NCBI GenBank assembly: GCA_964187785.1
Contig: OZ076409.1
Location: 248,001 to 312,000, forward strand
Reading direction: 5' to 3'
Origin: Amphiscolops sp. MND2022
Lineage: Eukaryota
Length of the DNA: 64,000 bases
This document shows positions 1 to 63,520 of the stretch, piece after piece; position 1 is the stretch's first letter; each line of letters starts with the position of its first letter. Under the pieces are notes generated by a model, which was not told where the DNA came from, did not search any database, and saw only the letters and a program-made list of their open reading frames with translations. The translations under genes and the position numbers were made by a program.

Positions 1-904
1 CAATTTACGTGACAGGTTTGTCACACGTTCTAGCTTATAGGAAGCGAAGAACTAGCTTATAGGAAGCTGAGAGTTAAATAAAATAGTTTTAGCCTATATG
101 ACCAGCCAATTACTAGGTCGAAGACAGGATTGTCTTGAGCATAGACTTATAAGAAGTCTTGCGAATCTAAGTAAATTAAGGGTCCTATCTAACCAGCATT
201 CGCTAGGTTTTTGTTCGGACAAGATTGCCGATTGGGCTCGATCCAGAGGTTCGGTGCCGTGTTCTAAGAGTTTTAACCTATTGCAATGGACCAGCAAGTT
301 TGCTAGGTCGAGAGGAAGACAAGTTTGTCTAAAGACTTTGAAGAAGTCTTGTGAGTCTAAGTGAGTTAAAGGCCTTATTTCAACCAGCAGTTTGCTAGGT
401 TGCTTTTTAGACAAGATTGTCAGAATTCTGTTCAATACTTTATAAGGTTACATGCATTTTACTTTTTAATCAGTTTGTTTTACTTGCAAGTTAGCTGCAG
501 TTATTGAAATGATCTAGACTAGCAGTAGCTAAGTCTTGACGCAATCGCGTACTAAGAGGAAAGTGATCTCCGTCGAGAATTGTTTGGGAGCGTTTAGCTC
601 TAGTTAGTTTTCCCTATGATTTTCATTGGAGAACCTTGTCGGTTGTTTGTCTCTTCAGTCACTAGGACTGGGGGTTGTCTATAAAAGACAGGTAGGAAAA
701 GGGAGCAAAGAAAAAAGAGAAAAATTTTGAGTTGTGAATTTTGAAGTTATTTTCTAAGTTAAAGAAAATAACTAACCTGAAGTTTGAAGCAAAGATTGGG
801 TCGGAGAGATTTGTTCTCGCAAGAGAGAGATTTTTTGAGAGAGATGATTTATAGCAGAGGCGAAGAGGAGAGTCAGAGTGAGAGTGTGCAAGAGATTTAT
901 GCGA

Positions 905-1065
905 GAAAATTATGAATCAATTTGCTAGAGTCCGGCTTTTTATACGAGCCGACCAAACGGTACAACCAATCAAATCGATTGGCGTTTTTTTATTGGATAC
1001 GAAATTATTTCGTCATTATCTCGTCAATATTTTGTCCATAATTGGAATCGCATTCACTATTGGAT
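905..1065 (-). promoter_or_regulatory. Putative Pol II promoter facing left (TATA plus CCAAT cluster)
   Basis: TTTTATA at 938-944 (TATAAAA on minus), with CCAAT/ATTGG boxes near 966, 978, 992, 1041 and 1059. A candidate minus-strand intron lies downstream at 776..679 (CAG|GTTAGT ... TTTTATAG|). Confidence 0.4.
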
Positions 1066-2562
1066 GCAACCGAATAGAAGTCGGCGGGGATTGCATCAGC
1101 TACCGAATATGTTCGGCTAACCGAGTTGGCTGACGCAACTCTTTGTATTTGTCAGGGGAATTAATCCTCTCAAGTGGGGGACTTTGTTCCCACTTGAGAA
1201 TTCTTTTGTTTAAAATTGAGAATTTGGCCGTACAAGTGGCGCCTATTATTCTCTTTTCAGAGATATTTACTGGCACAAGTGGCGTCGCATATTGTCTTTT
1301 CAGGGGAGATAAAAGATAATTGTTTGCACAAGTGGCAAGCGTTTTCTTTTGTAGAGGGGAATTCTCCCTTTCATATGACGCGCAGCTGTAATTTTGTTTA
1401 TCTCTAAAATTCTTTTGAGCGTGCCTGGAGAATTGAAAGGATTTGAGTAAGAGTTCACAAAAATTGAATTAAAAAAATTCTAGCTCCGATTGAATAATTT
1501 TCTAAATATGTTTTTTCAAATATTAAAATGAAGAAAAAGTTGTGTTAAACATAACAAAAAAGAATTGGTAGATATTGTCAGATGTTACAAACCGTTGTTG
1601 GAACTTTTTTTGGCTCAGAATTTTGAATGGTCCGGATATTCTATTTTTAAAGGGGTAATGATTCATCCGCATTATCTTTTTGAGATGATCCTTCTGCAAT
1701 TCGAAAGTACGTCGATTTCCGTCTACGCAGCAACTGTATTTCTGCAGATAGGGGACATCAGCCGCGAGGGCATAAACCACAACATTCACAGAAAGAAAAG
1801 CTTGTGTAATGCCAGCCGACCAGTGTTTCTGTCGAGCGAAGTTTCTCACTGCTTGAATCATTGCTTGAAAAATACAGCCTTTTTCTTCCCTAAAAATTGT
1901 GATTTATTTTCAGTTTTATGTTAACTATGCACGATCCGAAATTTAATTTCTGATGGTATTTGTCAACTTCAAGCAATAAATGTCTTGTTTTGTCCCTTTG
2001 TTTTTACGTTAGCTTACCAAACAGTTACAATTTGGAAATGGTTAGGTTACAATGTCGAGTTTTTGGGTTACATTCGGATCTCCTTAATAAACACCGCCCG
2101 CAGTTTCCATTCTAAATTTGCTACTTGGGAATACGACAATACATGTATCTTTTGCAATGCTCTGAATACCATCATTCCTAATTGAGATGTTGACGAATCA
2201 ACTGCTACTTTGCAACGTAGTGGAATTGGCATTTAAATTCAAAGACGAGTGATTTTTTGATCTGTTCGCTTTCGATGCAAACAATGTATACGTTTAGCAG
2301 TACCACCATATTAAGACTCGCGTGCAGGGTTAACCAGAGTAGTGAGAGACTACGAAAAAGTATGAATCCAATATGTTTGAAAGCAAATACACACATTGTG
2401 TTCATCAGATTTTTGGAGGAAGTTGCTGAGCCGAAAAACAGCAGAAACTGTTGGATTGAATGTCCTTCTGAGAAATTACGTCATCTTATATTCGTGTTTG
2501 AGTGTCTTCACTGGATTCTTTCAGTCTTAAGTACACTACTCATAGAAAACAAATTTGATTTT

Positions 2563-3254
2563 TAGTCGGCGCTTTTCTTAAGAGAAGAGTCGACTATAGT
2601 AATCGCTTTTCGTAAGTTTTTTTTGCGATACACCTGAAGTGACCAAAATAGTAGTACCAAAAGTTCTGCAAAATTTATTTTAACGCTCCAAAGTGTACCT
2701 GTTCGCCGAGGAAACTGAACCAAAACGGCTTATCCTTTTTTCCGCGTAACATGCAATACCGGAAGAGACTAAAGGGTTCCACCTTTGAGATTTTTCGGCA
2801 TTGTGAGACCAATTTTTTCGGAAAAAAATTATACCCAAAGGGTTTCCTTCCATTTTTTCGGTGTTTTGCGACCGAATGGATGTTAAAAAATTGCAAAGGG
2901 TCCCCTTTTCAGTTTTTTCGGCATTGTGAGACCTTATTTGAAATCATTTCCCCAAAAGGCCCCCCTTCAATTTTTGATGTTTTGCGACAAAATGGATGTT
3001 GAAAAATCCCCCATTTCAGTTTGTTTCAGCATTGTGAGACTTTTTTTCCTGAAACATTTCCCCAAAGGTTCGCCCTCCAATTTTTTGATGTTTTGTAACA
3101 ATGGACACTTAAAGATCCAAAACAGTCCCCCTTTTAGCTCGCCAGGGGCCCGCGCTAGCGTGCACCTGGCGCGCCAGTTCGGTCGTCTGGGTTTTTCCAA
3201 AGTGCCATTTTTTGCCGTTTTGAGCCTTAGATATATCGCCGTTTCCGGCTTGTT
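2563..3254 (+). mobile_element. Non-autonomous Helentron/DINE-1-like element, copy A
   Basis: Starts TTAGTCGGCGCTTTTCTTAAGAGAAGAGTCGACTA (imperfect hairpin), has internal TTTTCGGCATTGTGAGAC repeats, and ends GAGCCTTAGATAT..CCGGCTTGTT. Same ends as the reverse copy at 20893-21229. Confidence 0.6.
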
Positions 3255-4319
3255 AAAGCTTGTCGTTACTAGACAGGCAACTTAGGTTTTATTGTTTTTT
3301 TTGCATTGCGTGACTTTTTTCAAATTTTCTTGATGTAGCCAAGGGGTTCCCCTCTTTGGTTATTTAGATTTTCTGCAACAAACTGGATGTCGCGATTTTC
3401 AGCACCATGAGACTTTTTCCGAGAAGTTTTCTCACCCTTTGGAACATGGGTTTTCTCAATAATTGTAGAAAAAACCTAAGGTTTTTTCGACACTGTGCAA
3501 TTTTTTCGATTTGATTTTCGTTTGGTCGTAGGGTACCAAACCCTTCAGTAGTAAAAGTACGCGGCATTATAGGTGGGGGGGGGTTGAGTGAGTAACCAAA
3601 CATGGCCATAACGCGAACTCCAAATGACGTCATGATGGCGACACAATGACGTAACCGAAGGTCAAAAAATACTCACTCACGGAGAGCCGACTAGAAACCG
3701 AAACAAATATACACAACCTTGAAAAATCCGAGCCCGGAAATTTTTTTTGTTTCTATTTCAGGCAATGAAAGGAAATTTCCTTACCTTTGCGTGCTGGAAA
3801 GTAATAAAAAATGGAAGGAGCAGTTTGTTAGGAATGGAAATTGCGGCCGTGATAAAAGGAAACAGGATCAATAAAAGGTGCTTTCATCTACCAACGTTGA
3901 AATGAATGTGCTTCTACTTACTTCCTTTTGATGCTAGTGACCTTTATTGATGCGTGATTTCCATGGATAAAATTTCCCTGAAGTTACCTTCATTTGCGTA
4001 ATGGATAACATTCTTTATCATTCCAACCATCAACCGCCAAAAATATCTCCACCTTTACACAACGCCATATTTTCACACCGAGTAACATGGAAATGTGACC
4101 TGTAAATTGTGAAAATTGCTAAAGAAATTGACGAAAAAAGATGATGAAATGCTGTAAAAAGTATACTTTTTCTCATGTATAGAAGACTGAAAGAGTTTTC
4201 ACAGTGTTGAATAACGAAGTGCCGGACACGAAATAAGGGCATATTTTTTTACAAATGCGCAGAGTAGCCCCTGAAATAGCTACTATTTTCTACTAGGATC
4301 TCTACAGAGATCCTATAGT

Positions 4320-7300
4320 AATATACCGTATTTCGAAATATAGATCGAATATAAGTTCTACGCGACTGTGTTCATTGAATCTTAGCTACTTTAGCCCTAC
4401 AGTATTGTACTGTATATTGAAATATAGATCGAAGATAAGTCCTACACTACTATGTTCATCGAATCTTAGCTACTTAGACATATAGTATTGTACTGTATAA
4501 TGAAAGATAGATCCAATATAAGTCGTATACGCCTATGTTCATTGAATCTTAGCTACTTTAGACTTATAGTATTGTACTGTATATAGAAAGATCGATCAAA
4601 TAAAAGTCCTTTACAGCTGTGTTCATCGAATCTTAGCTACCTTAGACATATAGTATTGTAATGTATTTCGACTGATAGATCTAATATAAGTCCTATACGC
4701 CTATTGTCATTGATTCTTAGCTAATTTAAACTTATAGTATGGTACTGTATATAGAAAGACAGATCGAATATAAAACACATACGACCCTGTTCATCGAATC
4801 TTACCTACTTTAGACCTATAGTACGGTACTGTATGTTGAAAGATTGTTCAAATATAAAAGCTATACGATCTTGTTAATTGAATCTTAGCTACTTTAGACC
4901 TATAGTATTGTACTGTATAATGAAAAATAGATCGAATATATGTCGTTAACAGCTGTGTTCGTCGAATCTTAGCTACCTTAGACGTATAGTATTGTACTGT
5001 ATATTGACCGATAGATCCAATAAAATTTCTATACGCCTATGTTCAATGAATTTTAGAAACTTTAAACTTACAGTATGGTACTGTATATAGAAAGATAGAT
5101 CGAATATAAAACATATACGACACTGTTCATCGAATCTCCGCTACTTTAGACCTATAGTATGGTACGGTATATTGGAAGATAGATCAATTATAAGTCCTTT
5201 ACAGCTGTGTTCAACGAATCTTAACTACTTTAGTCCTAAAGTAAGGTTCTGTAATTTGAAAGATAGATCAAATATGAGTCCTATACAACTATGTTTAATA
5301 AATCTTAGCTACTTCAGACCTATCTTACAGTACTCTATATCGAAAGATAGATCAAATATGAGTCCTATACGACCGTTTTCATCGAATCTTACCTACTTTA
5401 GACGTAAAGTATTGTACTTTATATAGAATGATAGATCCAATATAAGTCCTATACGTCTATGTTCATTTAATCTTAGCTACTTCAGACTTATAGTATGGAA
5501 CTGTATATTGAAAGATAGATCAAATATAAAACATATACGACCCTGTTCATTGAATCTTAGCAACTTTAGACCTATATTATGATACTGTATATTGAAAGAT
5601 TGATCGCTTATAAAAGCTATAAGATCGTGTTAATTGAATCTTAGCTACATTAATCCTATAGTATGGTACTGTAAAATGAAATACAGATCAAATATGGGTC
5701 CTATACAACTTTGTTCATTGATTCGTAGCTACTTTAGAGCTATATCATGGTACTGTATATTGAAAGATCGATCGAATATAAAACCTATACGATGGTGTTA
5801 ATTGAATCTTAGCTACTTTAGACCTATAGTTTTGTACTGTATTTTGAAAAATAGATCGAATACAAGTTCTTTACAGCTGAGTTCAATGAATCTTAGCTAC
5901 CTTAATCCTAGAGTATGGTACTGTGAAAGGAAAGATAGATCGAATATGAGTCCTATACAACTTTGTTCATAAAATCTTAGCTACTTTAGACCTTTAGTAT
6001 GGTACTGTATATTGAAAGATAGATCAAATATGAGTCCTATACGACCGTTTTCATCGAATCTTACCTACCTTAGACGTAAAATATTGTACTCTATATTGAA
6101 TGATAGATCCAATATAAGTCCTATACGTCTATGTTCATTGAATCTTAGCTACTTCAGACTTATAGTATGGTACTGTATATTGAAAAATAGATCAAATATA
6201 AAACATATACAACCCTGTTCATCGAATCTTAGCTACTTTAGACCTATTATATGGTACTGTATATTGAAAGATTGATCGCCTATAAAAGCTATACGATCGT
6301 GTTAATTGAATCTTAGCTACATTAATCCTATAGTATGGTACTGTAAAATGAAATATAGATCGAATATGAGTCCTATACAACTTTGTTCATTAAATTGTAG
6401 CTACATTAGAGCTATATTATGGTCGAATCTTGTAAAATCTATATAGATCGAATATGAGTCCTAAACAACTTTGTTCATTAAATTGTAGCTACTTTAGAGC
6501 TTTATTATGGTACTGTATATTGAAAGATCGATCGAATATAAAACCTACACGATGGTGTTAATTGAATCTTAGCTACTTTAGACCTATAGTTTTGTACTGT
6601 ATATTGAAAGATAGATCGAATACACTTTCTTTACAGCTGTGTTCAATGAATCTTAGCTACTTTAATACATAGTATGGTACTGTAAATTGAAAGATAGATC
6701 AAAGATAACTCCTATACAACTTTGTTCATAAAACCTTAGCTACTTTAGACCTTTAGTATGGTACTGTATATTGAAAGATTGATCGAGTATAAAACCTATA
6801 AGATTGTGGTAATTGAATCTTTGCTACTTTAGACCTACAGAATGGGACTGTATATCGAAAGATATATCAAATATAAGTCCCAAACGACCGTTTTTATTGA
6901 ATCTTACCTACCTTAGACGTAAAGTATTGTACGCTATATAGAATGATAGATCCAATAGAAGTCCTATATGTCTATGTTCATTGATTCTTAGCTCTTTTAG
7001 ACTTACAGTATGCTACTGTATTTTAAAAGATAGATCGAATATAAAACATATACGACCCTGTTCATCGAATCTTAGCTACTTTAGACCTATTTTATGGTAC
7101 TGTATGTTAAAAGATTGATCGAATATAAAAGCTATACGATCGTGTTAATTGAATCTTAGCTACTTTAGACCTATAGTATTGTACTGTATTTTGAAAGAAA
7201 TACTGAATATAAGTCTTATACGGCCGTGTTCATTGAAATTTAGCTACCCTACTCCTATAATTTGGTGATGTATAATGAAAGATAGATCAAACATAAGTCC

Positions 7301-7495
7301 TCTACGGCTGTGTTCATTGAATCGTAGCTACTTTAGAGCAATAGTATGGTACTGTATATGGAAAGGATGATCAAATATGAAACCCATACGATCGTATAGG
7401 GGTATTATAGACCTATAGTATTGTACTGTATAATGAAAGACAGATCGAAGACAAGGCCTATACGAAAGTGTTCATCGAATCTCAGCTTCTTTAGT
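4320..7495 (+). repeat. 84-bp tandem satellite, left arm
   Basis: GAATCTTAGCTAC recurs at 4377, 4461, 4544, 4628 and onward. A higher-order offset of 672 bp (8 monomers) separates the blocks at ~5343 and ~6015. Confidence 0.95.
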
Positions 7496-7638
7496 ATTGA
7501 CTGCATAGCTCAGATGAAAACCGTTTGAAATGGTCAAAATCCGAATTATTGAATCAAAAAAGTCAGGTCATCGTGAAGGTAAAAAAACATTTTTGCGGAA
7601 AAAACGGTTCAATTGTTTCATTCAAAATATGGGTTTGT

Positions 7639-10600
7639 ATCGTATGGGTTTCATGTTTGATCATCCTTTCCATATACAGTACCATACTATTGCTCTAAAG
7701 TAGCTACGATTCAATGAACACAGCCGTAGAGGACTTATGTTTGATCTATCTTTCATTATACATCACCAAATTATAGGAGTAGGGTAGCTAAATTTCAATG
7801 AACACGGCCGTATAAGACTTATATTCGGTATTTCTTTCAAAATACAGTACAATACTATAGGTCTAAAGCAGCTAAGATTCAATTAACACGATCGTATAGC
7901 TTTTATATTCGATCAATATTTTAACATACAGTACCATAAAATAGGTCTAAAGTAGCTAAGATTCGATGAACAGGGTCGTATATGTTTTATATTCGATCTG
8001 TCTTTTAAAATACAGTAGCATACTGTAAGTCTAAAAGAGCTAAGAATCAATGAACATAGACATATAGGACTTCTATTGGATCTATCATTCTATATAGCGT
8101 ACAATACTTTACGTCTAAGGTAGGTGAGATTCAATAAAAACGGTCGTTTGGGACTTATATTTGATATATCTTTCGATATACAGTCCCATTCTGTAGGTCT
8201 AAAGTAGCAAAGATTCAATTAACACAATCTTATAGGTTTTATACTCGATCAATCTTTCAATATACAGTACCATACTAAAGGTCTAAAGTAGCTAAGGTTT
8301 TATGAACAAAGTTGTATAGGAGTTATCTTTGATCTATCTTTCAATTTACAGTACCATACTATGGATTAAAGTAGCTAAGATTCATCGAACACAGCTGTAA
8401 AGAAATTGTATTCGATCTATCTTTCAATATACAGTACAAAACAATAGGTCTAAAGTAGCTAAGATTCAATTAACAGCATCGTATAGGTTTTATATTCGAT
8501 CGATCTTTCAATATACAGTACCATAAGATAGCTCTAAAGTAGCTAAAATTTATTGAACAAAGTTGTATAGGACTCATATTTGATCTATATTTCATTTTAC
8601 AGTACCATACTATAGGAATAATGTTGCTAAGATTCAATTAACACGATCGTATAGCTTTTATAAGCGATCAATCTTTCAATATACAGTACCATAATATAGG
8701 TCTAAAGTAGCTAAGATTCGATGAACAGGGTCGTATATGTTTTATATTTGATCTATCTTTCAATATACAGTACCATACTAAAAGTCTGAAGTAGCTAAGA
8801 TTCAATGAACATAGACGTATAGGACTTATATTGGATCTATCATTCTATATAGAGTACAATACTTTACGTCTAAAGTAGGTAAGATTCGATGAAAACGGTC
8901 GTTTGGGACTTATATTTGAAATATCTTTCGGTATACAGTCCCATTCTGTAGGTATAAAGTAGCAAAGATTCAATTAACACGATCGTATAGGTTTTATATT
9001 CGATCAATCTTTCAATATACAGTACCATACTAAAGGTCTAAAGTAGCTAAGGTTTTATGAACAAAGTTGTATAGGAGTTATCTTTGATCTATCTTTCAAT
9101 TTACAGTACCATACTATGTATTAAAGTAGCTAAGATTCATTGAACACAGCTGTAAAGAAAGTGTATTCGATCTATCTTTCAATATACAGTACAAAACTAT
9201 AGGTCTAAAGTAGCTAAGATTCAATTAACACCATCGTGTAGGTTTTATATTCGATCGATCTTTCAATATACAGTACCATAATGAAGCTCTAAAGTAGCTA
9301 CAATTTAATGAACAAAGTTGTTTAGGACTCATATTCGATCTATATAGATTTTACAAGATTCGACCATAATATAGCTCTAATGTAGCTACAATTTAATGAA
9401 CAAAGTTGTATAGGACTCATATTCGATCTATATTTCATTTTACAGTACCATACTATAGGATTAATGTAGCTAAGATTCAATTAACACGATCGTATAGCTT
9501 TTATAGGCGATCAATCTTTCAATATACAGTACCATATAATAGGTCTAAAGTAGCTAAGATTCGATGAACAGGGTTGTATATGTTTTATATTTGATCTATT
9601 TTTCAATATACAGTACCATACTATAAGTCTGAAGTAGCTAAGATTCAATGAACATAGACGTATAGGACTTGTATTGGATCTATCATTCAATATAGAGTAC
9701 AATATTTTACGTCTAAGGTAGGTAAGATTCGATGAAAACGGTCGTATAGGACTCAAATTTGATCTATCTTTCAATATACAGTACCATACTAAAGGTCTAA
9801 AGTAGCTAAGATTTTATGAACAAAGTTGTATAGGACTCATATTCGATCTATCTTTCCTTTCACAGTACCATACTCTAGGATTAAAGTAGCTAAGATTCAT
9901 TGAACTCAGCTGTAAAGAACTTGTATTTGATCTATTTTTCAATATACAGTACAAAACTATAGGTCTAAAGTAGCTAAGATTCAATTAACACCATCGTATA
10001 GGTTTTATATTCGATCGATCTTTCAATATACAGTACCATGATATAGCTCTAAAGTAGCTACGAATCAATGAACAAAGTTGTATAGGACTCATATTTGATC
10101 TATATTTCATTTTACAGTACCATACTATAGGATTAATGGAGCTGAGATTCAATTAACACGATCTTATAGCTTTTATAAGCGATCAATCTTTCAATATACA
10201 GTATCATAATATAGGTCTAAAGTTGCTAAGATTCGATGAACAGGGTCGTATATGTTTTATATTTGATCTATCTTTCAATATACAGTTCCATACTATAAGT
10301 CTGAAGTAGCTAAGATTAAATGAACATAGACGTATAGGACTTATATTGGATCTATCATTCTATATAAAGTACAATACTTTACGTCTAAAGTAGGTAAGAT
10401 TCGATGAAAACGGTCGTATAGGACTCATATTTGATCTATCTTTCGATATAGAGTACTGTAAGATAGGTCTGAAGTAGCTAAGATTTAATAAACATAGTTG
10501 TATAGGACTCATATTTGATCTATCTTTCAAATTACAGAACCTTACTTTAGGACTAAAGTAGTTAAGATTCGTTGAACACAGCTGTAAAGGACTTATAATT

Positions 10601-11466
10601 GATCTATCTTCCAATATACCGTACCATACTATAGGTCTAAAGTAGCGGAGATTCGATGAACAGGGTCGTATATGTTTTATATTCGATCTATCTTTCTATA
10701 TACAGTACCATACTGTAAGTTTAAAGTTTCTAAAATTCATTGAACATAGGCGTATAGAACTTTTATTGGATCTATCGGTCAATATACAGTACAATACTAT
10801 ACGTCTAAGGTAGCTAAGATTCGACGAACACAGCTGTTAACGACATATATTCGATCTATTTTTCATTATACAGTACAATACTATAGGTCTAAAGTAGCTA
10901 AGATTCAATTAACAAGATCGTATAGCTTTTATATTTGAACAATCTTTCAACATACAGTACCGTACTATAGGTCTAAAGTAGGTAAGATTCGATGAACAGG
11001 GTCGTATGTGTTTTATTTTCGATCTGTCTTTCTATATACAGTACCATACTATAAGTTTAAATTAGCTAAGAATCAATGACGATAGGCGTATAGGACTTAT
11101 ATTAGATCTATCAGTCGAAATACATTACAATACCATATGTCTAAGGTAGCTAAGATTCGATGAACACAGCTGTAAAGGACTTTTATTTGATCGATCTTTC
11201 TATATACAGTACAATACTATAAGTCTAAAGTAGCTAAGATTCAATGAACATAGGCGTATACGACTTATTTTGGATCTATCTTTCATTATACAGTACAATA
11301 CTATATGTCTAAGTAGCTAAGATTCGATGAACATGGTAGTGTAGGACTTATCTTCGATCTATATTTCAATATACAGTACAATACTGAAGGGCTAAAGTAG
11401 CTAAGATTCAATGAACACAGTCGCGTAGAACTTATATTCGATCTATATTTCGAAATACGGTATATT
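7639..11466 (-). repeat. 84-bp tandem satellite, right arm (inverted)
   Basis: Reverse complement of the left array (GTAGCTAAGATTC), with an extra ~755-bp (9-monomer) block; compare 8101 and 8856. Confidence 0.95.
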
Positions 11467-12245
11467 ACTATAGGATCTCTGTAGAGATCCTAGTAGAAAA
11501 TAGTAGCTATTTCAGGGGCTACTCTGCGCATTTGTAAAAAAATATGCCCTTATTTCGTGTCCGGCACTTCGTTATTCAACACTGTGAAAACTCTTTCAGT
11601 CTTCTATACATGAGAAAAAGTATACTTTTTACAGCATTTCATCATCTTTTTTCGTCAATTTCTATAGCAATTTTCACAATTTGCAGGTCACATTTCCATG
11701 TTACTCGGTGTGAAAATATGGCGTTGTGTAAAGGTGGAGATATTTTTGGCGGTTGATGGTTGGAATGATAAAGAATGTTATCCATTACGCAAATGAAGGT
11801 AACTTCAGGGAAATTTTATCCATGGAAATCACGCATCAATAAAGGTCACTAGCATCAAAAGGAAGTAAGTAGAAGCACATTCATTTCAACGTTGGTAGAT
11901 GAAAGCACCTTTTATTGATCCTGTTTCCTTTTATCACGGCCGCAATTTCCATTCCTAACAAACTGCTCCTTCCATTTTTTATTACTTTCCAGCACGCAAA
12001 GGTAAGGAAATTTCCTTTCATTGCCTGAAATAGAAACAAAAAAAATTTCCGGGCTCGGATTTTTCAAGGTTGTGTATATTTGTTTCGGTTTCTAGTCGGC
12101 TCTCCGTGAGTGAGTATTTTTTGACCTTCGGTTACGTCATTGTGTCGCCATCATGACGTCATTTGGAGTTCGCGTTATGACCATGTTTGGTTACTCACTC
12201 AACCCCCCCACACCTATAATGCCGCGTACTTTTACTACTCCCTTC

Positions 12246-12509
12246 ACTTTGTCAAATGCTTTCGGCCTGAAAAAAGCGGTCGACGTGCTTAAAGTTTTTC
12301 CGCACTATGAAACTTTTGCTCGAAGAAACTTTTTTGAGAAAAAATATCAACAAATTGATATTTCAGAGAATATGTTTCAAGTTGACAAAAAGCAGTTTTC
12401 GAGTCGTATGAGTAACCCTTCAGGTTATTTTTCGGCATTGTAACTTAGTGTCCCTTCGCATATTTAACCCTGGAGCGGGGCGCCGATTTGGATTGTTACT
12501 GGCTTGTTT
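12246..12509 (+). mobile_element. 3' part of a Helentron-like copy split by the palindromic element (5' part ~3290-3540)
   Basis: Contains TTTTCGGCATTGT and ends GGGGCGCCGATTTGG..GGCTTGTT like the other copies. Confidence 0.45.
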
Positions 12510-60685: not shown

Positions 60686-61547
60686 TAACTCTAACTGCAC
60701 CTGAATAAAACTCATCGTTGATTCTGGGGAAAATTACAATTTTCGCTCTTACTGTGAGGGGGATTGGCTTTGGTAAACAGAAAAGATCCTGATAAAGTGT
60801 TTGAAATAAAAAACATGAGTACAAAATCATTCAATACGTGGAAAACACTTACAATTGATAATCATATAATAAATCCAATAAAGAAGTACATGAATATACA
60901 TTTTATGTCCCACCAAGGCCTAGTGAAAAGTGGGGTCTATGCAAGGTTGTAAAAATAAGTATTTTTAAATAAATATTTTTAAACAGATATAATTATTTTT
61001 CGACTCAAACAGTTTAGTGAACAAACACGGTCAGCTGTTTATAACGGGGCTGTTTATAATGGCGTAAAAATGTTTCATAGCGGCTCTCAACTTTTATGTC
61101 CCACCAAGGCCTTTTAAAAAAGGGGTCTATGTCCCACTAAGCCGGCTTTGCATAAACAAGTGAAGAAGTTTCCTGGAAATGATATGTATTTATAATGATC
61201 ACCAGAACAAAAAGTCTTATTGGTATTCACTGATTACCGTTTATAGGTTTTTTGTACTGATGGTTGATTGAGTGACATGTTGTAAAAAAGCAGGTCCATG
61301 TCCCACCAAGTGCGTTTTGGTCCCCACGGTATTGTAACTATTGAAGCACGGCCTAACACCCAGTCATGCCAGAATTATCAAGATATTGATGAATTGACTA
61401 CATTGAAGACTCATACCAATGAAAGAATCAAACGCATTTAAAGTGATATAAACAAATCACAAACCTAAAAAATTCTACGGGAAAACAAATTCAGATAAAT
61501 ATATAGATGAAAGTCTTTAATAACGTATCAACTAAAACTTGTTTCAG

Positions 61548-62802
61548 AACGTCAGAAGGGCTCATTCGAATGCAATTCTTGTGGGAAGATACTAACGAGA
61601 CATTTCGATTTGCTCCGTCATCGACAAACAAATAAACAATGTAGAGGTCTGCAAGCTAGAACCACATCGTGTATTACAACTCCAGTAGATGTTCCTGTTG
61701 ATGTAACCGGAGATGATGTACCTTCTCCCGAACCCGATGCTGCAACAACTTCTCTCGACAGGACACCCAGAGTTAGCCCTGAAAGGCAACAGTCTGTTCC
61801 TCCCCTAGGAGAACTTTTCGGTGAAACAGTTACTTTTGAAGAAGTAATTGCTTCTGGTGAAGTGTTTCCCCCCGAATTAATAACCCCTCCTAGAGAAAGA
61901 GAGACTGCTCGTGAAGTGACTGCTCGTGAAGAGACTGCTCGTGAAGAAGAGACTGCTACTGAAGAAGAGACTGCTCCTGAAGAAGAGACTGCTCCTGAAG
62001 AAGAGACTGCTCCTGAAGAAGAGACTGCTCCCGGAGGAGAGATTGCTCTTGAAGAAGAGACTGCTCTGAAAGAAAAACAAAAGATACCGGAAATTGAACT
62101 GCCGTATTTAGATTCCTTCAAATGGGGTTCAAACAATCGTTCCAAAGTTGGGTCAAAAAAGTTTTTGGATTTAATTCGAGGGAAAGTACCAGTCACCCAA
62201 AGTTTCACTGTCAACAACCGCCAGGATTTCAAGAACCGAATGACGAGAAGTACACCATGTCCTGTAGTTTTGAGACAAGCTAGGGGCAAACTTGCTGGTC
62301 TTGTTGTTCCTAGTGCCATACACGGTACCTTCCGTAAATTAACTGAGGGAATCCCTTGCAGCAGGAAAGTAAATGTGTGTTTTTCAGCACTCCAGGAAGT
62401 GGAGAACAATATGACCTTGGCAAGTTTTTTGGGGCATCATGAAGACCCATTCCGCGAGCGAGATCTTCATCCAATGAACATCATCGACCTTGACATTGGT
62501 CCGCATCAGAGGACAATGAAACACACATTTTCGATTCCAAACTTGATAAAAGAATATTCTCTGGGTCATACTTACACCTCAAGAATGGATCCCTCAATCC
62601 GAGAAGAGTTTGACTTCACTGCTGGCATCAGCAATTACCTCTTGATGACTGAACAGGAAGCACAGACGGATTGGCATCAGGATTTCACCGGAAGTTCTGT
62701 TTTTTACTTTTTGTTGAAGGGAAGGAAAGAATTTTTCATCGTGGAGCCAACCCAGAAAGCCCAACAGCGTTTTGACGAATGGCGAGAGAGTGAATGGAAA
62801 AG
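61548..62802 (+). CDS. ZnF-JmjC gene exon 3 (C2HC finger 3, acidic repeat, N-half of JmjC)
   Basis: TTTCAG| acceptor; FECNSCGKILTRHFDLLRHRQTNKQC; EEETAP repeats; YLLMTEQEAQTDWHQDFTGSSVFYFLLKGRKEFFIVEPT; donor AG|GTTTGT. Confidence 0.88.
61900..62070 (+). repeat. Coding 15/18-bp tandem repeat (EEETAP)
   Basis: GAAGAAGAGACTGCTCCT units, frame-preserving. Confidence 0.95.
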
Positions 62803-63063
62803 GTTTGTAAAAAGGAAAACTCAGTTTTTACTTCAGTTTAGATTAATAATTGTGATCTTTTTCCTTATTGTTAAGTTGTAATTGGTTATGTGATTGTTGT
62901 CAACAACTGTTAAAAGCTGAAGGTTATGACTGAAGATATTTCCAAAAAAGGGTTTGCTTTTCACGAGTTACAAGATACCTTCAAGGGGCTGAAACTTCTT
63001 AGAAAATTTCCGATGTTTAAAGTAGAAGTTAGTTCTCTCAACTTTGATTAATGTTGTTTTCAG

Positions 63064-63520
63064 CTCCACTTTCTTCGGTTTCCATCGAGATGTCACATGC
63101 TATCATATTGTGGTAGAAGAAGGAGACGCTATCTTCTTACCAAGCCAGTGGATTCACTTTGTTCACACCCCTGTTGATAGCATTGCTTATGCGTGTAACT
63201 TCATTATGGAAACCCACCTCCACCAGAGTGCCCTAGCCTTCAAGAAGGAGCTAGACGCAGGTTTGGCAAGACGTTTCTTGTTCCCAAACTTCCCAGGTTT
63301 GATAGTGATGCAGCTCTACATGGAATGGGCTAATAAAAACCGCGTGAGTCCTATCACGAAAGCCGCCATGCGTGAGATGCTGCAGATCATAAAAGCTGAT
63401 GAGCGACCAACTGGTAAAGAATTTCCGCTGGAAAATCCCTGGGCAGAGTTCTTGTATCGCTATGCAGCAACTGTCAGCGACTTGCATTGGGATGTAATTG
63501 AGGATTGGCTACAACGTTGA
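63064..63520 (+). CDS. ZnF-JmjC gene exon 4 (C-half of KDM2/KDM7-type JmjC)
   Basis: TTTTCAG| acceptor, in-frame join; FFG..CYHIVVEEGDAIFLPSQWIHFVHTPVDSIAYACNF..FPNF; stop at 63518-63520. Confidence 0.9.

Follow-up and report, generated by a model that had tools for sequence, protein, structure and literature searches.

The 64,000-nucleotide stretch of the Amphiscolops sp. MND2022 genome analysed here (contig OZ076409.1, positions 248,001 to 312,000; hereafter the window) contains, at window positions 3547-12239, an element of 8,693 bp that begins AGTAGT, ends ACTACT, is non-coding and consists almost wholly of inverted repeat. It is probably a non-autonomous, gene-less fold-back derivative of a Maverick/Polinton family, and a private copy from which the centre has been deleted. 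The affiliation with Polintons, put forward in a preliminary description made from the sequence alone, is supported by the end motif, by the length of the target site duplication (TSD), and by ends shared with elements of ~18.3 kb that carry an ATPase gene.

The (AGT)2 motif lies at 3547-3552 and its counterpart (ACT)2 at 12234-12239. Reading both ends shows the left junction as ...aaaCCCTTC followed by AGTAGTAAAAGTACGCGGC..., with the right junction as its mirror image, such that CCCTTC forms a perfect 6-bp TSD at 3541-3546 and 12240-12245; both copies fall inside the span of 3541-12245 originally given for the element, which holds, as do the ends and the TSD described with it. In the available portions of the survey of vertebrate Mavericks by Barreat & Katzourakis (PMC8097293), (AGT)2//(ACT)2 is the commonest end motif, accompanied by perfect 6-bp TSDs, with (AG)3//(CT)3 as the alternative. 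Unlike a Maverick, the window element lacks pPolB, integrase, capsid, ATPase and protease genes. No open reading frame (ORF) of at least 120 amino acids (aa) is found in it, the longest stop-to-stop frames being mirrored ones of 111 aa within its satellite, and a scan of the whole window against Rfam matched zero families, in keeping with the earlier claim that it is gene-less. For pPolB and the retroviral-type integrase, this negative result is accompanied by the lack of a tblastx match to a Polinton of 14.3 kb resident in the same genome, and ORF and tblastx checks of the element, with a Pfam check of the inner region of its family, likewise recovered no capsid, packaging ATPase or adenain-like protease. 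As it encodes no Polinton genes, it can only be a non-autonomous derivative.

The element was inserted into an interspersed repeat of greater age, which has hundreds of candidates in the genome at 70-85% identity and of which the flanks at 3247-3546 and 12240-12446 form part (70-75% identity). Left and right flanks are directly adjacent to one another at C1:20849822-20850343 and C4:84050746-84051246, which represent paralogous empty sites. The features of the element are as follows.

3541..3546, unstranded: left copy of the TSD, CCCTTC (identical hexamer at 12240-12245).
3547..12239, unstranded: element proper, 8,693 bp (inverted repeat, ends, ORF scan).
3547..3600, plus strand: left terminus, comprising the (AGT)2 motif and the stretch common to the ~18.3-kb class (first 22 nt and nt 33-53; pattern matches).
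3547..4311, plus strand: left terminal non-satellite region, 765 bp, family-specific beyond nt ~55-95 (reading, pattern counts).
4312..7494, plus strand: left array of the 84-bp satellite, 38.0 units, lacking a 755-bp stretch (9 units) that the right arm has (repeat finding, arm comparison).
6420..6449, plus strand: irregular satellite unit private to the window copy, mirrored at 9337-9366 (101-nt identity, 30-mer comparison).
7386..7397, unstranded: 12-bp palindrome ATACGATCGTAT, to the centre of which the inner end of the right arm maps (reading, mapping).
7393..7638, unstranded: asymmetric spacer of 246 nt, comprising continuation of the left arm only, plus filler (inverted-repeat search, mapping).
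7495..7631, plus strand: remnant (137 bp) of the inner non-coding region of the family (mapping to a full-length copy).
7632..7638, unstranded: 7-nt filler GGTTTGT at the deletion junction (reading, mapping).
7639..11474, minus strand: right stretch of the 84-bp satellite, inverted, from arm position 4345 of a full-length copy (mapping).
11475..12239, minus strand: right terminal non-satellite region, ending in (ACT)2 (reading, arm comparison).
12240..12245, unstranded: right copy of the TSD, CCCTTC (reading of the right end).

The inverted repeat, which greatly exceeds chance expectation, aligns in two registers. In the longer, 3547-7377 pairs with 8409-12239 (3,831 nt, 97%); in the shorter, 6441-7392 is matched by 7639-8590 (952 nt, 98%), and 246 nt remain between the arms. 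The left arm measures 3,846 bp (3547-7392) and the right arm 4,601 bp (7639-12239), confirming the initial estimates of ~3.85 and ~4.6 kb with a spacer of ~246 bp, and the inverted repeat makes up ~97% of the window copy and almost 100% of full-length members. Both arms are laid out as a 765-bp non-repetitive end followed by the 84-bp satellite, arrayed at 4312-7494 (38.0 units) and 7666-11474 (45.3 units). Since most mismatches in the long register (84 of 108) lie within the inner 630 bp and stem from a shift of register, the figure of 97% understates the identity of the arms. When one 755-bp (9-unit) indel is allowed for, the arms agree at 99.12% in their satellite parts (27 mismatches in 3,082 nt); for the terminal 764 nt the identity is 99.48%, and the arms as a whole differ by this indel and 31 substitutions (0.8%). 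An irregularity in the array noticed at the outset is indeed mirrored: 6380-6480 matches the reverse complement of 9306-9406 at 101 of 101 nt, and the 30-mer representing the irregular unit is missing from all four arms of two other copies of the family. The suggestion that one arm is a copy of the other, made once the satellite had diversified, is supported by such private variants and by unit indels mirrored across arms.

The structure of the centre is clarified by comparison with a full-length member of the family. The left arm spans the whole satellite and 137 bp of the inner region, with window positions 7408-7631 (224 nt) corresponding to arm positions 4452-4675 of the full-length copy at 98% identity. 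After the filler GGTTTGT the right arm begins at arm position 4345, inside the satellite, so that the left side keeps arm positions 1-4675 and the right side 1-4345. The 246-nt spacer is, judged by this mapping, the excess of the left arm over the right, and the window copy is a family member missing ~7 kb around its centre. The 12-bp palindrome ATACGATCGTAT, within which the left arm had been said to end, is confirmed at 7386-7397. The junction shows TATG microhomology, and TATG together with the filler repeats the nearby TATGGGTTT (7643-7651). A 28-mer across the junction has a single match in the genome (1+0), which identifies the window copy as a private derivative; the same genome-wide search found no other locus with this central junction and different flanks.

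The extent of the family was assessed in the 1.07-Gb assembly that contains the window. A search with the terminal 770 bp of the element, as originally recommended, returned 543 candidates, of which all 40 that were scored are 96-100% identical, and led to other palindromic copies with different TSDs. Each of 30 family termini fetched begins AGTAGTA, preceded by any of the four bases, and in all four testable terminus pairs there is a perfect 6-bp TSD, each different from the others (CCCTTC, CAAAGT, GAGAAG and AATATA). Pattern counts, which were exhaustive over the genome and for which every reversed-pattern control was zero, fall along the element as follows: 161 forward and 164 reverse matches (325 in total) for the 22-nt terminus, 132 + 121 for the block at nt 33-53, 57 + 55 for exact matches to the block at nt 97-117, 106 + 105 for the block at nt ~136 (at most 2 mismatches), 76 + 75 for a 29-mer at nt ~515 (at most 2 mismatches) and 60 + 59 for a motif adjoining the centre of the family (at most 1 mismatch). 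These counts indicate that some 60-80 elements have the architecture of the window element, among ~160 elements carrying its ends. The architecture shared across the family consists of the 765-bp end, the 84-bp satellite and a non-coding inner part of 3.4 kb.

Full-length members are near-perfect palindromes of 14-20 kb, with arms of ~8 kb and loops down to 19 nt. Two copies of ~16 kb on C10 have arms that are 99.77% identical over 7.9 kb and 99.92% identical over 7.7 kb, made up of the 765-bp end, 42-45 satellite units and ~3.4 kb of inner sequence. No frame of at least 120 aa exists in the inner sequence of full-length copies outside the N-run, and none of the 21 inner-region ORFs of at least 63 aa matched Pfam. 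In three gap-free elements the palindrome is continuous through the centre, with a 19-nt loop in two of them. The centres differ between copies, coincide with short local hairpins and are nested. The centre of C6/C4 type, with its 19-nt loop, is a mere local hairpin in arms of C7 and C10 type (folding at -28 kcal/mol, z = -7.1), which run ~150 bp further to another hairpin centre; arms of C8 and C5 type include the whole of this second centre and extend deeper.

The divergence between arms also varies considerably from copy to copy. Young-looking copies have arms that are 99.8-99.97% alike with mirrored unit indels, and the gap-free, older copies have arms ~2.6% apart. Copies A and B are separated from one another by a 252-bp indel and 1% substitutions, but mismatches between the two arms of each number just 1 and 2; identity to A and B is 97.1-98.3% for the window copy, against 99.1% between its own arms. 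In elements on C4 (C4:8715181-8721291) and C6 (C6:224471-230583), which have different flanks, one arm is divergent and one is of a common type: the two divergent arms share 99.06% identity with one another and 97.3-97.5% with their respective partners, and the common-type arms are 99.5-99.6% identical to arms of other copies. The proposition that the two arms of a pair are always each other's closest relatives was rejected, as the partner is not the nearest sequence in one of four pairs for the terminal 764 nt, nor in the C4, C6 and C8 elements for the inner 1.5 kb. Identities of 89-91% between arrays of different copies in single BLAST high-scoring segment pairs are register artefacts, with gapped alignment giving 97.1-99.0%; a six-sequence MAFFT alignment likewise shifted registers, and site counts from it were not used.

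The decisive evidence linking the family to Polintons is the spacing of termini of the window type. When plus and minus termini of the window type are paired, 14 of 33 pairs among the first 100 places listed span 17,990-18,328 bp. This 18.3-kb class is without the fold-back centre motif, with one exception at C2:98521830, and the 29-mer at nt ~515 was not found in the members of the class on C1, for which all matches were covered. In one such pair (L068), the central 200 nt are not palindromic; they form an open frame of 66 aa that matches residues 158-220 of the Pox_A32-type ATPase ORF of a Polinton on C9 at 46% identity (E = 1e-16). A Pfam search with this fragment gave no match at E ≤ 1, the ATPase assignment coming from the pairwise match. 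The fragment's DNA recurs at 99-100% identity in all 40 candidates scored out of 101, and nine of the matches, among the best 40 of 101, sit at the middle of terminus pairs. The first 22 nt of the window element are shared with the ~18-kb elements, subfamily variants included, and each of their ends has the block at nt 33-53, such that no fewer than the first 53 nt, including the (AGT)2 motif, are held in common with a resident coding class, as expected of a non-autonomous partner. On these grounds the ~18.3-kb class, with ~100 copies, would appear to be a young coding Polinton family, and it is likely to be the helper of the fold-back family.

The Polinton on C9 (C9:7111865-7126177) is complete at 14,313 bp and belongs to a different family from the window element. 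It has AGTAGTAATAGCAGGGGGGG... ends on both sides (starting AGTAGTAAT...) and a TATATT TSD, and it encodes pPolB, an rve integrase (E = 1.2e-9), an A32-type ATPase (4.3e-7) and an adenain-like protease (4.2e-5). Only the first 8 nt are common to the two elements, and neither blastn nor tblastx detected internal similarity of the window element to this Polinton, the one coding element with which it was compared.

Further observations concern these classes of terminus. The C9 Polinton (L065:5866-10000, L066, L067) also has a 505-aa ORF bearing C2H2 zinc fingers, and its 19-nt terminus has 58+61 matches in the genome, many in pairs ~14.3 kb apart. The exceptional pair of window-type termini at C2:98521830-98540155 (18,326 bp) has fold-back inner sequence on one side only (98528792-98529403), does not figure among the best 40 of the 101 ATPase-fragment matches, and may be a chimera or a nested insertion. 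Very small terminus pairs occur as well, recorded by their coordinates only: those of window type at C1:36670890-36671057 (168 bp), C4:17985201-17985675 (475 bp) and C4:35757489-35761384 (3.9 kb), and one of the 14.3-kb family at C5:71168671-71168956 (286 bp). Their existence suggests mini-derivatives of Polintons resembling miniature inverted-repeat transposable elements.

Set beside described Mavericks, the fold-back family is similar in its (AGT)2//(ACT)2 ends, its perfect 6-bp TSD, its possession of terminal inverted repeats (TIRs), its sharing of ends with the ATPase-bearing ~18.3-kb elements, and the length of its full-length members (14-20 kb), which is close to that of the presumed helper. 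The TIRs take an extreme form, at 3.8 and 4.6 kb in the window and ~8 kb in full-length copies, and the arms are far longer than published TIRs and differ from them in carrying 38-45 units of an 84-bp satellite. As far as the sources' accessible text extends, vertebrate Mavericks have TIRs of 46-1,447 bp and a constrained size of 16.9 ± 1.7 kb (Barreat & Katzourakis, PMC8097293), anole Mavericks typically have a 6-bp TSD and a 584-bp TIR, with no non-autonomous copies found (PMC3014272), and the TIRs of butterfly polintons are ~2 kb and contain genes (bioRxiv 10.1101/2025.02.07.637071). No description of palindromic or fold-back Polinton derivatives was found in the literature searched, to the extent of the text accessible.

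The following mechanism would account for these structures. The integrase of the 18.3-kb Polinton would integrate the element in trans by recognising the shared ends, and the protein-primed polymerase of the same Polinton may also copy it, given that a repeated AGT end motif is what such polymerases use; in the part of PMC8097293 available, the end-motif repeats are assigned to the jumping-back step of protein-primed replication. On more than one occasion, a single strand would have folded back at a short inverted repeat and been copied back to its own end (snap-back), which would make the two arms identical again. Both arms would be copied faithfully between such events, and after insertion they would drift apart. 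The location of the centres on short hairpins, and their nesting, argue for repeated snap-back events, and a combination of occasional resets, faithful copying between them and drift after insertion fits all the arm data. The window copy would then have lost ~7 kb around its centre during or after insertion, either through breakage and microhomology-mediated joining or through one further template switch, its structure being compatible with both.

Centres seated on hairpins are the expected product of fold-back priming or of a polymerase U-turn, and the accessible parts of work on inverted duplications in yeast and cancer (PMC10622511, PMC7467729) also place palindrome centres on short natural hairpins. 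Those palindromes resemble the present ones further in that long palindromes are prone to central deletion; they differ in being chromosomal rearrangements at breaks, rather than mobile units with transposon ends and TSDs. The palindromes of the family could have been made by the Polinton polymerase or by host fold-back repair: their structure, the nested centres and the unique microhomology junction of the window copy are compatible with an origin as snap-back defective genomes, and host fold-back repair would give the same result.

Several observations weigh against this interpretation of the element as a Polinton derivative shaped by snap-back copying. The block at nt 97-117 is absent from the ends of the ~18-kb elements at the level of exact matches, so the link to the helper rests on ~55-95 nt and the TSD length. 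The 18.3-kb class is known from 200 internal nt and terminus patterns, with its pPolB and integrase presumed. The genome is rich in pPolB, for which scoring 91 of 1,908 candidates gave 93 matches to PF03175 in frames of up to 1,288 aa; within that sample, none of the 93 lies inside an 18-kb pair, and none near the family termini. The fold-back arms show no similarity to the C9 Polinton, leaving >95% of the element without a Polinton match there. The palindrome in the window is known from the assembly alone. Runs of exactly 200 N occupy the centre in 14 of 20 centre loci (among L038-L063) and in the two C10 copies (L031:8440-8639 and L033:8172-8371), and hence most full-length centres are not actually seen. 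Finally, the arm asymmetry of the C4 and C6 elements implies that a hybrid or asymmetric palindrome transposed with its unequal arms intact, which tells against obligatory re-templating at each round.

The best of the alternatives, although unlikely, is that the locus holds a copy-back defective genome which arose de novo from a Polinton in one round of protein-primed replication and was then integrated. An arm running to position 4675 followed by the reverse complement from 4345 is the exact product of a single template switch onto the nascent strand, and the junction, unique in the genome, has microhomology and a short templated filler between ends that are those of a Polinton. However, to judge from the comparison with the C9 Polinton, the arms contain no Polinton sequence beyond the ends, and dozens of ~16-kb palindromes already combine this end, satellite and inner region. 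With a parent that was already palindromic, a plain central deletion explains the window copy equally well, and a fresh perfect copy would not have arms that differ by a 755-bp indel and 31 substitutions. The preliminary description had proposed such a copy-back genome, integrated in trans: mobilisation in trans is supported by the shared ends, but a single copy-back event on a Polinton genome at this locus is not, given the dozens of copies with the same architecture and the ~16-kb palindromes that full-length members form; the loss of ~7 kb from the centre of such a member is the simpler account.

It is highly improbable that the arms owe their identity to host gene conversion between chromosomal inverted repeats, instead of to the snap-back resets favoured here. 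In other genomes the arms of palindromes are well known to undergo gene conversion, and this could produce the young-looking copies with arms 99.8-99.97% alike and mirrored unit indels. Yet there are gap-free copies in which the arms are just 97.3-97.5% alike in the inner 1.5 kb, indicating that homogenisation in place is weak, and in both the C4 and the C6 element one arm has closer relatives in other elements than its own partner, which shows that conversion in situ is not efficient. The different, nested centres on short hairpins would also be left unexplained.

Nor is it readily believable that the element is a classical fold-back transposon of a cut-and-paste superfamily, such as FB of Drosophila or Galileo, with a coincidental likeness to Polintons. 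Long TIRs largely made of tandem sub-repeats, a tiny or absent loop and a lack of genes are the textbook architecture of that group, in which array length varies between copies; FB and Galileo, assigned to MuDR-like or P-like families, have TSDs of 9 and 7 bp respectively. The present family shares this architecture, with arrays of 38-45 units of 84 bp per arm, loops of 19 nt in full-length copies and no Polinton gene within the element. Against a common origin, the TSD is 6 bp and the ends are AGTAGT, both as in Mavericks (PMC8097293, in the portion available), and the ATPase-bearing 18-kb elements have ends identical to the first 22 nt, in their subfamily variants as well, and to nt 33-53, making a virus-like, self-synthesising element the likely helper. 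FB elements are mentioned in the accessible text of PMC6431247. Having the cis features of a Maverick and none of the coding features, the window element is a non-autonomous derivative with FB-type architecture.

Least credible is an assembly artefact, whether a hairpin or chimeric long read or a collapsed repeat: long reads are known to produce artefactual palindromes, the centre is a run of 200 N in most full-length copies, and several contigs begin or end at a family centre (C1204, C1039, C987, C1827 and C1051), apparently reflecting assembler breaks at palindrome centres, but the window is free of N, its outer junctions enter different single-copy flanks with a perfect TSD, these flanks are contiguous in paralogous copies of the interrupted repeat, the 755-bp indel and 0.8% substitutions between the arms are not expected from a self-folded read, and there are many independent family insertions with TSDs.

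As a Polinton derivative, the family invites comparison with defective viral genomes. Defective adenovirus genomes with long inverted terminal duplications are a familiar case. Snap-back genomes are highly symmetric palindromes, according to the part of PMC13506859 available, and snap-back or copy-back genomes resemble the window family in consisting of one genome end and its reverse complement, in being non-coding and helper-dependent, and in competing for the replication and packaging machinery of the helper. They differ from it in that the window family keeps just ~55-95 nt of the helper's end, the rest being foreign non-coding DNA, and is integrated in the germline in multiple copies with TSDs. 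A tentative extension of the comparison, possible though rather doubtful, would have the family record, in the germline, the snap-back defective-interfering genomes of an endogenous polintovirus, retaining only the ~55-95-nt replication and integration end of the helper, repeatedly made palindromic by U-turns of the protein-primed polymerase at short inverted repeats, and selected to 14-20 kb, near the 18.3 kb of the helper, by capsid packaging. If this were so, Mavericks in this host would replicate extrachromosomally by strand displacement, form particles and carry parasites of their own.

The replication and movement of Mavericks and Polintons are still inferred mainly from their gene content. 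A gene-less, multi-copy family that keeps Polinton ends and amplifies with correct TSDs shows what suffices in cis for integration. The palindromic build, the hairpin-nested centres and the near-helper length are the traces expected of a protein-primed polymerase and size-limited packaging, and the family therefore constitutes a natural test bed for this model. There is also a practical consequence, in that the 16-kb palindromes of the family interrupt the present assembly at their centres and would be open to mis-annotation as satellite DNA or as unclassified fold-back elements.

Some minor features of the element and its surroundings remain to be recorded. Sites resembling those of the cAMP response element (CRE)/ATF type, TGACGTCA and TGACGTAA, occur at 3625-3654 and 12132-12161, ~80-105 nt from each end, and the similar words TGACGTAACC and TTACGTAACG flank the central hairpin of the family; TGACGT is not enriched across the window (25 matches against 20.5 expected). 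A Pfam search with the 12 ORFs of at least 130 aa in the window produced only a weak JmjC/cupin match, far from the element. It falls in a 164-aa frame at 63026-63520, with an E of about 1e-4 that is below the cut-off, and an open frame of 456 aa without a Pfam match lies at 61511-62881. Both frames are probably host exons, unrelated to the element.

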